A stretch of DNA of 64,000 nucleotides from Chrysomallon squamiferum (taxonomy: Eukaryota > Animalia > Mollusca): NCBI GenBank assembly GCA_012295275.1, contig CM022676.1, positions 16,740,001 to 16,804,000 of the forward strand, read 5' to 3'. Shown here piece by piece: positions 9,565-38,390 of this stretch. Both the position numbers and the translations under genes were made by a program. Under the pieces are notes generated by a model, which saw only the letters and a list, made by a program, of their open reading frames with translations, did no database searches and was not told where the DNA came from. Position 1 is the stretch's first letter. The number at the start of each line of letters is the position of its first letter.

Positions 9565-9622
9565 ATGTATTTCTTTCCGTGCATCTGGATTTATTCATTT
9601 GTTATACCTACGGTTATTTCAG
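9565..9622 (+). CDS. Gene B exon 1, signal peptide [19 protein letters not shown]
   Basis: ATG, 19 mostly hydrophobic codons + 1 nt, strong CAG|gtatgt donor; phase 1 matches SRCR1a; two paralogous leader exons elsewhere. Confidence 0.8.
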
Positions 9623-36600: not shown

Positions 36601-38390
36601 ATCCAGAATGTATTATACTGATCATATGATAACCATATTATGTAATGGTCACATACCTTTAACGTATCTTTATGATATGATGTTTCCTGCTGTCAGTGTC
36701 CAATCTTAACCACCCAGTTTTCTTTAACAGAATGACCGAAGGAGTACATCACTATTTGGATTCCGTTTTTCTATTCAGACAATTCGCTTGACTTATAACG
36801 GAATCTAATATCTTCAAACTTCACTGTCGAATTTATCTTTTTGTTTTTCGTTTGATATATTTCCAGCCAAGAGTAAGTGTGTGTATCTCAGTATATGTAG
36901 GCATGCTATGGACCATCTTCTTAACAAAGAGTGTCTGCCTATGTGTCTGTATATTGTGTATTTCTGTATGTGATGTGTTTATGTATGTTTATGTATATGC
37001 ATGTATGTAAGTCATCTGTCCATTTTTTTTTTGTACGTGTGGGTATATTTTATATGTGTATGTGTGTATACTTATATGTCTATGTGTGATGTGTGCATTT
37101 CTTTGTGTTTGTGTGTGATATGTATATGACGTCTGTCTGTACGCCCCTCTTTGTCGTGTTTTCATATAGAAAGATTGAACTGTATAAGAAAGCAAAATTA
37201 CATAAAATAATAACATAAAACGAGTGTCTGTTCAGTAGTCATCGTGAAGAATGATCGGTTATAATTATTTCATGTAACGCCTTTCATATTAATGTCGTTC
37301 ATATAAATAATGCGGATACATCGATATAGTTGTCTTATAGAATTTGTTTATGTATGTGCACGTAAATATGTTAATATTTGTGGGTTTGTTTGTGTTATTA
37401 TCCAAAAATCCATAGTTGCATTATTCAGTAATTACCTTTTAATTAACTTTTATTTACTTTTATATAGTTATTTATTTTGTTAAATATATTCTTTTTCTCT
37501 CATTTTCTTATGTATGTCTTATTTTAGCGTGCTAGTCAATAACTGTATTGCGCTTCTTCTTGTTTTTATGATTGTCTTTGCTATTATTATTGTTATTGTT
37601 ATTATTATTATTATTATTATTATTATTATTACTATAGTGAAATCATTTAACTTTGAATTGTGAGAAGTCTGTAAATTTTATTATTAAAACTAAAAAGCTA
37701 CCACTTAGAACATGTGTCTCTTTCAAATCACAGGAACGTTTCTGAACCGCAGTCTCAAATGTACGACAATCTTGCTTTTGAGCTTGGTAAGTGCAATATT
37801 TTTGGAAGACGCCTTACTTTAATGAAAGCGGTTTAAATTCTGCTCGTTCAATACATATTAATAATGGAATAATAATAATATAAAAATGTTTTCACTGATA
37901 TACTGGGCTAAGAACGTGTGAGTTATTTTGCATAACGTTAATGAGATAAGATCTAATTTATATTATCTCCTTAGATGCGCAAAGTTTAATATTTGTATGT
38001 GAGAAATACAGTGTTTATCAATTAATATTTGTGCAGTATGACAGCTTCTTTTATAAGCACCATAAACCAATTTCTATCTCTATAGCTGTGCAAATTAGAA
38101 TCTGGTGAAGTTAGGCTGTATATCGCGTTTGACATTTTTATCTCTCTGTCACTGCTGTTTTTTTATTTATTATTATTTTTTATTTTTTATTATATATATA
38201 TATATAACTTATTTAATCATCTGTTGTTGTTTTTTTTTTACTTCTACGTTTAATTGTTAATGTATGACTTACTGTTTTTGAAACGAAACATAAATACATA
38301 TATATGTTTTTATTATTTCTTGTAGGGAACAGTCCAGAACCGAATCTGTATGAAGTACTTGGTGTCGATGATAATGTACGAACACATTAA
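9565..38390 (+). CDS. Gene B: SP-SRCRx7-(Ig-Ig-FN3)x2-TM-ITAM-like tail receptor, 25 exons, ~1408 aa if the 1-nt gap at ~19381-19385 is restored
   Basis: All 24 introns GT-AG with compatible phases; restored CDS 4227 nt. SRCR motifs VRLV.G....GRVE....WGT.C, GxGxIWxDxxxC, WG..C.H..D.GI.C; Ig C...C pairs with Y/F-x-C; FN3 W...Y...Y...AYN.YG; TM; tail [55 protein letters not shown]. Confidence 0.88.
11371..11985. repeat. ~40-bp minisatellite (TATTATTAGAAAATATACAGGATAACTTTAAACAAAAACG-like), ~15 units
   Basis: Head-to-tail diverged units of 40-41 bp, no unique spacers. Confidence 0.9.
15243..15368. repeat. (AAG)n microsatellite
   Basis: Directly visible; source of the poly-R ORF. Confidence 0.97.
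17285..17429 (+). CDS. SRCR1 exon a
   Basis: 145 nt, phase 1-2; [47 protein letters not shown]. Confidence 0.93.
18036..18205 (+). CDS. SRCR1 exon b
   Basis: 170 nt, phase 2-1; [56 protein letters not shown]. Confidence 0.92.
18935..19079 (+). CDS. SRCR2 exon a
   Basis: 145 nt; [47 protein letters not shown]. Confidence 0.92.
19255..19429 (+). CDS. SRCR2 exon b (apparent 1-nt deletion frameshift)
   Basis: 175 nt versus 176 nt in its twin 25748-25923; GGT ACA AAA AG TGT AGT CAT. Confidence 0.8.
19563..19640. repeat. (CT)n microsatellite
   Basis: Directly visible. Confidence 0.97.
19972..20116 (+). CDS. SRCR3 exon a
   Basis: 145 nt; [47 protein letters not shown]. Confidence 0.92.
20226..20322. 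mobile_element. Small palindromic MITE-like insertion
   Basis: aaattctgagttcttaattcaatatat ... atatacattgaattaagaactcagcattt inverted arms; not seen in the paralogous intron 26545-27250. Confidence 0.55.
20565..20740 (+). CDS. SRCR3 exon b
   Basis: 176 nt; [58 protein letters not shown]. Confidence 0.92.
22160..23090 (-). mobile_element. Possible highly decayed LINE 5' fragment (ORF1 end/endonuclease start)
   Basis: Broken minus-strand peptides (SFIETN..., [13 protein letters not shown], ...IHLN) loosely resembling CR1-group motifs. Confidence 0.25.
23548..23692 (+). CDS. SRCR4 exon a
   Basis: 145 nt; [47 protein letters not shown]. Confidence 0.93.
23915..23980 (+). pseudogene. Relic fragment of an SRCR a-exon 3' half
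   Basis: ATC TGT GGT GAA CGT TTT GAC ACA AGA GAT GCT ACT GTT CTC AGT TCA GTG ATG = [18 protein letters not shown], aligning to [18 protein letters not shown] of SRCR4a. Confidence 0.7.
24462..24637 (+). CDS. SRCR4 exon b
   Basis: 176 nt; [58 protein letters not shown]. Confidence 0.92.
25405..25549 (+). CDS. SRCR5 exon a
   Basis: 145 nt; near-identical to SRCR2a. Confidence 0.92.
25748..25923 (+). CDS. SRCR5 exon b
   Basis: 176 nt; [58 protein letters not shown]. Confidence 0.92.
26400..26544 (+). CDS. SRCR6 exon a
   Basis: 145 nt; near-identical to SRCR3a. Confidence 0.92.
27251..27426 (+). CDS. SRCR6 exon b
   Basis: 176 nt; [58 protein letters not shown]. Confidence 0.92.
28207..28351 (+). 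CDS. SRCR7 exon a
   Basis: 145 nt; near-identical to SRCR1a. Confidence 0.93.
28917..29086 (+). CDS. SRCR7 exon b
   Basis: 170 nt; twin of SRCR1b. Confidence 0.92.
29967..30221 (+). CDS. Ig domain 1 exon
   Basis: 255 nt, phase 1-1; [22 protein letters not shown]...FTCTA. Confidence 0.92.
31186..31464 (+). CDS. Ig domain 2 exon
   Basis: 279 nt, phase 1-1; LRCEVDSNP...[13 protein letters not shown]. Confidence 0.92.
31699..31998 (+). CDS. FN3 domain 1 exon
   Basis: 300 nt, phase 1-1; PPRIP...[11 protein letters not shown]...VQYR...[14 protein letters not shown]. Confidence 0.93.
32722..32976 (+). CDS. Ig domain 3 exon (twin of Ig1)
   Basis: 255 nt, phase 1-1. Confidence 0.92.
33981..34259 (+). 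CDS. Ig domain 4 exon (twin of Ig2)
   Basis: 279 nt, phase 1-1. Confidence 0.92.
34494..34793 (+). CDS. FN3 domain 2 exon
   Basis: 300 nt, phase 1-1. Confidence 0.93.
35492..35605 (+). CDS. Gene B transmembrane exon
   Basis: 114 nt; [38 protein letters not shown]. Confidence 0.9.
36048..36081 (+). CDS. Gene B cytoplasmic exon 1 ([11 protein letters not shown])
   Basis: ttttag|...AG|gtaaca; 34 nt. Confidence 0.85.
37734..37786 (+). CDS. Gene B cytoplasmic exon 2 ([17 protein letters not shown])
   Basis: tcacag|...|gtaagt; 53 nt. Confidence 0.88.
38326..38390 (+). CDS. Gene B terminal coding exon ([21 protein letters not shown])
   Basis: tgtag| acceptor; TAA 38388-38390; the downstream sequence is homologous to that of gene A. 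Confidence 0.88.

Follow-up and report, generated by a model that had tools for sequence, protein, structure and literature searches.

An SRCR-headed Ig/FN3 receptor gene predicted in Chrysomallon squamiferum, the scaly-foot snail, and its relatives among gastropod immunoglobulin superfamily proteins

The window analysed here is a stretch of 64,000 nucleotides from Chrysomallon squamiferum, the scaly-foot snail (GenBank assembly GCA_012295275.1, contig CM022676.1, positions 16,740,001 to 16,804,000, forward strand). It holds a gene for a predicted receptor that combines seven SRCR domains with immunoglobulin (Ig) and fibronectin type III (FN3) domains, a transmembrane (TM) segment and a tail containing tyrosine motifs. 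We read the gene from the window as 25 exons on the plus strand, running from an ATG at 9565 to a TAA at 38390 (positions are those of the window), and tested the exon boundaries by script. All introns were of the GT..AG type, and each domain module was entered in phase 1. The exons encode, in order, a leader, seven SRCR domains, two copies of an Ig-Ig-FN3 module, a TM segment and a tail spread over three exons. Pfam matches, cysteine counts, splice ends and intron phases all agreed with a preliminary description of the locus, which had joined seven group-A SRCR domains to (Ig-Ig-FN3)x2, a TM segment and a tail. That description had missed that exon 19255-19429 is frameshifted as assembled.

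The leader exon (9565-9622; 58 nt) contains 19 hydrophobic codons, ends in a phase-1 donor and is predicted to encode a signal peptide. Each SRCR domain is encoded by two exons, the first of 145 nt and the second of 170-176 nt: SRCR1 at 17285-17429 and 18036-18205, SRCR2 at 18935-19079 and 19255-19429, SRCR3 at 19972-20116 and 20565-20740, SRCR4 at 23548-23692 and 24462-24637, SRCR5 at 25405-25549 and 25748-25923, SRCR6 at 26400-26544 and 27251-27426, and SRCR7 at 28207-28351 and 28917-29086. Comparison of 15 exon translations with Pfam gave a match to SRCR for every one of the eight half-exons submitted, to Ig for all four Ig exons and to fn3 for both FN3 exons; seven of the eight SRCR halves passed the curated cut-off, and the frameshifted half fell below it. 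All 14 SRCR half-exons matched SRCR proteins by tblastn, and CD163 was the top PDB sequence match. Six cysteines were present in six of the seven domains and seven in SRCR5, which, together with the match to PF00530, places these domains in group A. The domains pair by sequence, SRCR7 being 87% identical to SRCR1, SRCR5 88% to SRCR2 and SRCR6 87% to SRCR3, suggesting that the array grew as 3+3+1. In intron 1, tblastn and a Pfam scan of open reading frames (ORFs) detected no hidden V-type Ig or other exon.

The stalk follows as Ig-A1 (29967-30221), Ig-B1 (31186-31464) and FN3-1 (31699-31998), and then Ig-A2 (32722-32976), Ig-B2 (33981-34259) and FN3-2 (34494-34793), the Ig domains matching Pfam Ig and retaining the cysteine pair, and the FN3 domains matching Pfam fn3. 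The TM exon (35492-35605) encodes an uncharged, hydrophobic helix with a mean hydropathy of 2.35, followed by basic residues. The tail is encoded by a first cytoplasmic exon (36048-36081), a second (37734-37786) with the motif YDNL, which is both a YxN and a YxxL motif, and the last exon (38326-38390), which contains YEVL and the stop codon. A candidate in-frame microexon of 6 nt (36867-36872) lies in a tail intron; its pyrimidine tract is strong, its donor reads GTAAGT, and it is the sole plus-strand site matching the microexon pattern used. It remains unproven, and the model works without it.

We estimated the ratio of nonsynonymous to synonymous substitution rates (dN/dS) from the internal duplicates. 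The pooled value for the SRCR domains, which excludes SRCR4 and the part of SRCR2 beyond the frameshift, was 0.43 (0.25-0.75; 295 codons), indicating purifying selection, and that for the stalk was 0.87 (0.49-1.89; 275 codons), indistinguishable from neutral. The rapid diversification that had been suggested for this locus was thus only partly borne out. The two copies of the intron between Ig-B and FN3 (31465-31698 and 34260-34493) are alike at 226 of 234 positions, above the likeness of the flanking exons, and Ig-A gave a dN/dS of 1.40 on few sites; either diversifying selection or conversion of exons between paralogous copies may lie behind these observations. Ligand binding by DMBT1 requires a D-D-E cation site (PMC7043408), and motif mapping found this site (cation site 2) intact in SRCR1 and SRCR7, two of the seven domains.

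The second exon of SRCR2 measures 175 nt, compared with 176 nt for its sister exon 25748-25923, the difference falling in a run of A's near 19380, and the assembled model consequently stops at codon 236. We placed contigs of four DNA runs on 16800-23400. An extra A behind 19380 was carried by 5, 7, 5 and 6 contigs in the respective runs, and thus in all four, and accounted for 22-32% of the depth at that position. Depth is not a copy number here: in run X1, exon bins reached about 130-1140 and intron bins 9-77, an excess that points to many near-identical exon copies, and the contigs with the extra A may therefore be paralogous. A low-depth X7 contig, which spans 19370-19553 and extends into the next intron, carries two extra letters net, and fits a locus-specific A, short of proof. 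With the extra base the predicted protein has 1408 residues, and skipping SRCR2 leaves an open frame of 1301 residues. We consider an assembly slip in the A run a likelier cause of the frameshift than a true lesion.

It appears distinctly unlikely that the frameshift is real and that the gene is a decaying or pseudogenised copy, with a drifting stalk, in a birth-and-death cluster. The single-nucleotide deletion with its premature stop, the stalk dN/dS, the alteration of five of the seven cation sites, and the nearby presence of an orphaned leader and a shortened promoter-like copy (described below) would all be in keeping with decay. Against this, all 24 remaining exons have open frames and undamaged splice ends, the SRCR dN/dS is below 1, the loss of SRCR2 by skipping preserves the frame, the deletion falls in a run of A's, and the low-depth X7 contig has two additional letters net.

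To place the gene among other proteins we searched with the Ig-B exon, which identified 28 proteins among 87 candidates. All were from the peltospirid Gigantopelta aegis, with 68-82% identity to Ig-B2, and none of the 28 contained SRCR. A profile search, covering proteins of 666-2000 residues, gave 37 matches among 7992 scored proteins and added three Gigantopelta and six Haliotis relatives, for totals of 31 and six, respectively. The complete-looking Gigantopelta relatives have the architecture Ig(n)-FN3-TM with tyrosine tails; 30 of the 31 have no SRCR, many start with an Ig that looks V-type by eye, and 18 of the 31 are encoded on one 53.4-Mb sequence. In relatives, FN3 is preceded by an Ig domain that is missing from the window gene. 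The automatic names of the Gigantopelta and Haliotis family are CEACAM5-, nephrin-, hemicentin- and syg-2-like. A 'CEACAM5' orthogroup has been listed as expanded, with 130 members in Gigantopelta, 101 in Chrysomallon and 59 in Lottia (source data of PMC7895826), and may correspond to this receptor family.

One of the 37 profile matches contained SRCR domains. This predicted G. aegis protein, XP_041372788.1 (P0149 in our set), carries the automatic RefSeq name 'DMBT1-like' and reads as signal peptide-SRCR7-Ig5-FN3-TM-tyrosine tail. The Ig search had missed it; both searches are incomplete, and more SRCR-headed relatives are possible. In a comparison set of 172 SRCR domains from 14 proteins, in which XP_041372788.1 was the only Gigantopelta SRCR protein, its domains were the best match outside the window for all seven SRCR domains, at 55-66% identity. 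The D-D-E site was intact in all seven of its domains. In a quick tree of 90 SRCR domains, the seven from the window formed one group (Shimodaira-Hasegawa-like approximate likelihood ratio test, SH-aLRT, 86), which was placed beside domains 2 and 5 of XP_041372788.1 (87), and domains 3 and 6 joined them in a wider group (92). This grouping suggests that the two heads share an origin and that the number of seven repeats was reached twice. In a tree of the stalk, the window gene fell inside the Gigantopelta clade, with support of 100/100 against Haliotis.

With one SRCR-headed Gigantopelta protein amid 31 relatives in that species, and further relatives in Haliotis, the window gene thus appears from its sequence to be an SRCR-headed branch of a gastropod immunoglobulin superfamily (IgSF) receptor family. 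The combination had not been recognised as that of any named family. We found no description of an SRCR-Ig-FN3-TM-tyrosine family in the open-access literature; the design is nevertheless shared with a Gigantopelta protein and sits inside a broader gastropod family. Among the best 120 of 1501 matches in an SRCR profile search, a set crowded with many-SRCR proteins, two carried Ig families and none carried fn3, and whole-protein matches in the ESM Atlas all scored under 0.9. The combination of SRCR with Ig is also less novel than supposed, as it recurs in a coral protein and in chordate clusters, the latter being a lead only, with scores under 0.9. The coral protein (P0071, Stylophora pistillata) is partial and shows an Ig, an SRCR array, a further Ig and an end that looks like FN3 by eye; its similar parts were probably put together independently.

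The prediction of XP_041372788.1 bears on whether the SRCR head is joined to the Ig-FN3-TM part in one protein, as had been assumed, or the two are separate transcripts, with the SRCR part perhaps made mainly as a secreted isoform. The scaly-foot snail has 65-70 published copies of 'DMBT1' (PMC7142155, PMC7736800), and neither Ig nor FN3 appears for them in the published domain table (PMC7142155). This absence, the lack of SRCR in 30 of the 31 Gigantopelta relatives, and the stop met within about 16 codons on read-through past the SRCR7 exon would suit separate transcripts. By our count by eye, however, 30 of the 41 SRCR-bearing models in that table end in a half domain (PMC7142155), which suggests that the published models are truncated. 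In the window, the intron from SRCR7 to the first Ig is 880 bp long and phase-matched (29086 to 29967), and none of the three leader exons in the window lies between SRCR7 and the first Ig, where a separate Ig gene would need one. Since the Gigantopelta model joins homologous parts in a single predicted protein, we regard separate transcripts as very unlikely. The window gene may itself overlap the published 'DMBT1' expansion, a comparison made between domain tables only.

The tail reads YDNL-x12-YEVL. The pair of YxxL motifs that had been called ITAM-like (ITAM: immunoreceptor tyrosine-based activation motif) is present, but the spacing of 12 lies outside the strict definition, Yxx[IL]x6-9Yxx[LI], used for the Alr receptors of Hydractinia (PMC9546547). 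It falls within the looser form used for the oyster receptor CgIgR, D/ExxYxxL/I x6-12 YxxL/I (PMC6994640), but has no D/E at -3. When this tail was shuffled 20,000 times, a tyrosine pair with x6-12 spacing arose in 0.6% of cases. In 22 related tails, that of the upstream paralogue not among them, we counted 28 YxN motifs, against 7.0 in shuffled tails, and 53 YxxL/I/V motifs, against 12.1, with neither count reached in any of 2000 shuffles; these tails are kin, and the counts are therefore not independent. YxN is a Grb2-type site. An ITAM with x6-8 spacing was present in five of the 27 TM-bearing relatives and not in the window gene, and the similarity of its tail to the family tails is short and weak. 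We conclude that the conserved feature of the tail, as judged from motifs, is a set of tyrosine docking sites and not a strict ITAM. The tails of two Gigantopelta proteins repeat tyrosine-motif units, giving 12 tyrosines in P0026 and 8 in P0150, and SxYxxL motifs of the immunoreceptor tyrosine-based inhibitory motif (ITIM) type occur together with ITAM-type motifs in P0004, P0009, P0026 and P0028.

The surroundings of the gene contain parts of further copies. Upstream on the plus strand lies a paralogue (3057-5513) with a TM exon at 3057-3170 and tail exons at 3741-3774, 4864-4916 and 5434-about 5513, its ectodomain falling outside the window. Its TM and tail are identical to those of the main gene at 45 of 87 residues, and its tail, YENL-x18-YEVF, is not an ITAM. 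Downstream, also on the plus strand, are a second, intact leader exon (57088-57145) preceded by conserved upstream sequence, and a third (63973-64000) that is cut by the end of the window. Searches of 38.4-64 kb with tblastn and Pfam, including the region after the leader at 57088, detected no SRCR, Ig, FN3 or hidden V-type Ig exon, tblastn revealed no SRCR, Ig or FN3 exon in any other part of the window, and no Pfam match was obtained for any of the 128 ORFs scanned in the remainder of the window (148 candidates). As the neighbours consist of TM/tail or leader exons only, they demonstrate a tandem family, but with just one ectodomain. Of the earlier proposal of at least two genes and further leader exons in tandem, the upstream paralogue and the leaders were confirmed, but the window contains no second ectodomain. 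A tandem gene family of single-pass receptors whose tails bear tyrosine docking motifs is supported.

The leaders at 57088 and 63973, both preceded by conserved sequence, are about 6.9 kb apart with no domain exon between them, and may represent an orphan or first exons that the next gene uses alternatively. The sequence that precedes the leaders recurs at 48612-49248 (matching 56071-56636 and 9032-9250), where it ends before any leader exon. A repeat of roughly 1 kb is present in three copies with 83-89% identity (6839-7800, 42883-43808 and 60882-61868), two of which sit 2-3 kb upstream of a leader. One minus-strand ORF scanned per copy gave no Pfam match, and the repeat is possibly a retroelement remnant duplicated along with the gene unit. 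On the minus strand, 167-638 holds two ORFs that overlap (91 and 127 codons); they have a protein-like composition and no Pfam match, and are possibly a broken exon or a mobile-element fragment. A degenerate AT-rich tandem repeat occurs both in intron 1 (11366-11986) and downstream of the gene (39516-39977).

On balance, we are moderately inclined to regard the locus as a copy of a tandem family with the architecture SRCRx7-(Ig-Ig-FN3)x2-TM-tyrosine tail, likely encoding a surface recognition receptor for microbial or other polyanionic surfaces that signals through SH2 proteins. Phase-1 exon shuffling could have set an SRCR head on the stalk of the family before the split from Gigantopelta; the scaly-foot lineage would then have retained a single SRCR type and expanded it into seven copies, lost the Ig exon preceding FN3 and duplicated Ig-Ig-FN3. 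In the resulting type I surface receptor, the Ig/FN3 stalk would act as a spacer between the membrane and the SRCR array. With D-D-E kept, SRCR1 and SRCR7 might, like DMBT1, use Ca2+ to bind anionic ligands of microbial or matrix origin, and the other five SRCR domains, with altered sites, would either act as spacers themselves or recognise ligands in another way. Once clustered, the receptors could be phosphorylated at YDNL and YEVL by a Src-type kinase, and the phosphotyrosines could recruit Syk/Shark-type or Grb2-type SH2 proteins, leading to uptake or defence signalling.

Several observations weigh against this interpretation. The gene is frameshifted as assembled, and 68-78% of the depth at 19380 comes without the insertion. 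The canonical cation site is altered in five of the seven SRCR domains, and in the coral SRCR-Ig protein it is gone from all nine parsed domains. The coral protein indicates that the site is no universal marker, and as retention in the other compared proteins spans none to all, its loss is not unusual. The ITAM spacing is non-canonical and is not kept by the neighbouring gene. The SRCR tree is a quick one, made with no bootstrap and with support under 95, the stalk tree leaves an open fork between the window gene and XP_041372788.1, and Gigantopelta contributes a single predicted model, one of its 31 relatives. Finally, published scaly-foot SRCR and Ig/FN3 genes are tied to shell- and scale-secreting tissue (PMC7142155, PMC11871041).

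This last point raises the possibility that the same protein senses, or adheres to, matrix secretions (chitin, proteoglycan or mineral) in the shell- and scale-secreting epithelium, and does not serve immunity. The scaly-foot 'DMBT1' copies are highly expressed in the mantle and scale epithelium (PMC7142155), Ig- and FN3-domain proteins were detected specifically in sclerites (PMC11871041), and a DMBT1 SRCR domain binds hydroxyapatite and heparin through the same cation site (PMC7043408). The published genes may, however, be distinct from the window locus, and relatives with the same kind of tail are also found in Gigantopelta and Haliotis. As an exposed epithelium also meets microbes, epithelial expression cannot separate the two readings. 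We consider the matrix role rather unlikely.

An allorecognition complex with allele-specific homophilic binding, as had been proposed by analogy with Hydractinia Alr, found no support and is in our view extremely improbable. Clustered single-pass Ig/FN3/TM proteins with tyrosine motifs do resemble the outline of Alr (PMC9546547), and one intron contig in run X1 differs at 11 of 311 letters, against 0-2 in X2 and X3, a difference in which allele and paralogue are inseparable. Against it stand the Ig cysteine pair kept in the window gene, unlike many Alr domains, and the purifying selection on the distal SRCR domains. The closest relatives, moreover, come from solitary gastropods.

Returning to the recognition receptor, we tentatively raise a broader possibility, which we hold to be doubtful. 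In peltospirid vent snails there may be a receptor complex, so far undescribed, that joins a common Ig-FN3-TM-tyrosine signalling stalk to interchangeable heads, either V-type Ig domains or SRCR arrays. The scaly-foot 'DMBT1' expansion, which has been read as a secreted biomineralisation toolkit, might in part be this complex behind truncated models, with dozens of SRCR-headed signalling receptors that let a chemosymbiotic animal sort the microbes on its surfaces. Apart from this possibility, the analysis identifies a head-swapping receptor family in vent gastropods, with one signalling stalk bearing mostly Ig heads and, in other members, SRCR arrays. Automatic names (DMBT1-, CEACAM5-, nephrin- and hemicentin-like) split that one family across labels and hide the head swap; the family is undescribed in the open-access literature and yet already present in the database as a mis-named model. 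The building blocks and the logic of clustered receptors are already familiar. Invertebrates show repeated instances of SRCR expansion, of SRCR combined with Ig and of single-pass receptors in clusters (PMC5119243, PMC10855680, PMC7663992, PMC13712769). How the window gene differs from known systems can be stated part by part.

DMBT1 is a secreted protein with group-B SRCR domains, and the class I scavenger receptors (CD163, CD6 and CD5) also have group-B SRCR domains and are not known to have an Ig/FN3 stalk. The window gene resembles the latter, at the domain level only, in being a TM protein with several SRCR domains (definition in PMC7663992). Features in common with DMBT1/SALSA and the scaly-foot 'DMBT1' set are SRCR domains arrayed in tandem, repeats that in part have cation-site residues, and a tandem peltospirid expansion. 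Unlike DMBT1, which has CUB and ZP domains (PMC7736800), the window gene has neither of these, and has Ig/FN3 domains, a TM segment and a tail instead; several of the published scaly-foot 'DMBT1' models have a non-SRCR N-terminus of roughly 170 residues that is absent from the window gene (PMC7142155).

Among Ig receptors, the oyster CgIgR (Ig5-TM-ITAM) binds bacteria and recruits Syk via its ITAM in a Syk-ERK pathway (PMC6994640). It is likewise a molluscan single-pass Ig receptor with paired YxxL motifs, but it has an acidic residue ahead of the first tyrosine, and no SRCR or FN3 is reported for it. The Alr proteins are clustered single-pass Ig/FN3-like receptors, some with ITAM or ITIM motifs in their tails, and many of their Ig domains have no disulfide and tryptophan; SRCR is not mentioned in the available text of that paper (PMC9546547). 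They have 1-3 unusual Ig domains, an FN3-like region and no SRCR, whereas the window gene has seven SRCR domains and cysteine-paired Ig domains. The Biomphalaria PTC1/PTC2 clusters, compared by description, are also clustered single-pass receptors, with no SRCR head reported in the accessible part of the source (PMC13712769). Both Alr and PTC1/PTC2 are defined by allorecognition or parasite-resistance genetics.

The nearest systems are the gastropod relatives. The Gigantopelta/Haliotis IgSF family shares with the window gene the Ig-B and FN3 stalk, a single TM segment, a YxxL/YxN tail and occurrence in many copies, and differs in its V-type-looking Ig heads and in the Ig kept before FN3. XP_041372788.1 has Ig5-FN3 where the window gene has (Ig-Ig-FN3)x2, and carries three SRCR types, whereas the seven of the window derive from one; its cation sites are intact in 7 of 7 domains, compared with 2 of 7, and its tail spacing differs. 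Its group-A SRCR7 head, Ig domains (about 70% identity), FN3 domain (47%), TM segment and tyrosine tail are all alike to those of the window gene.

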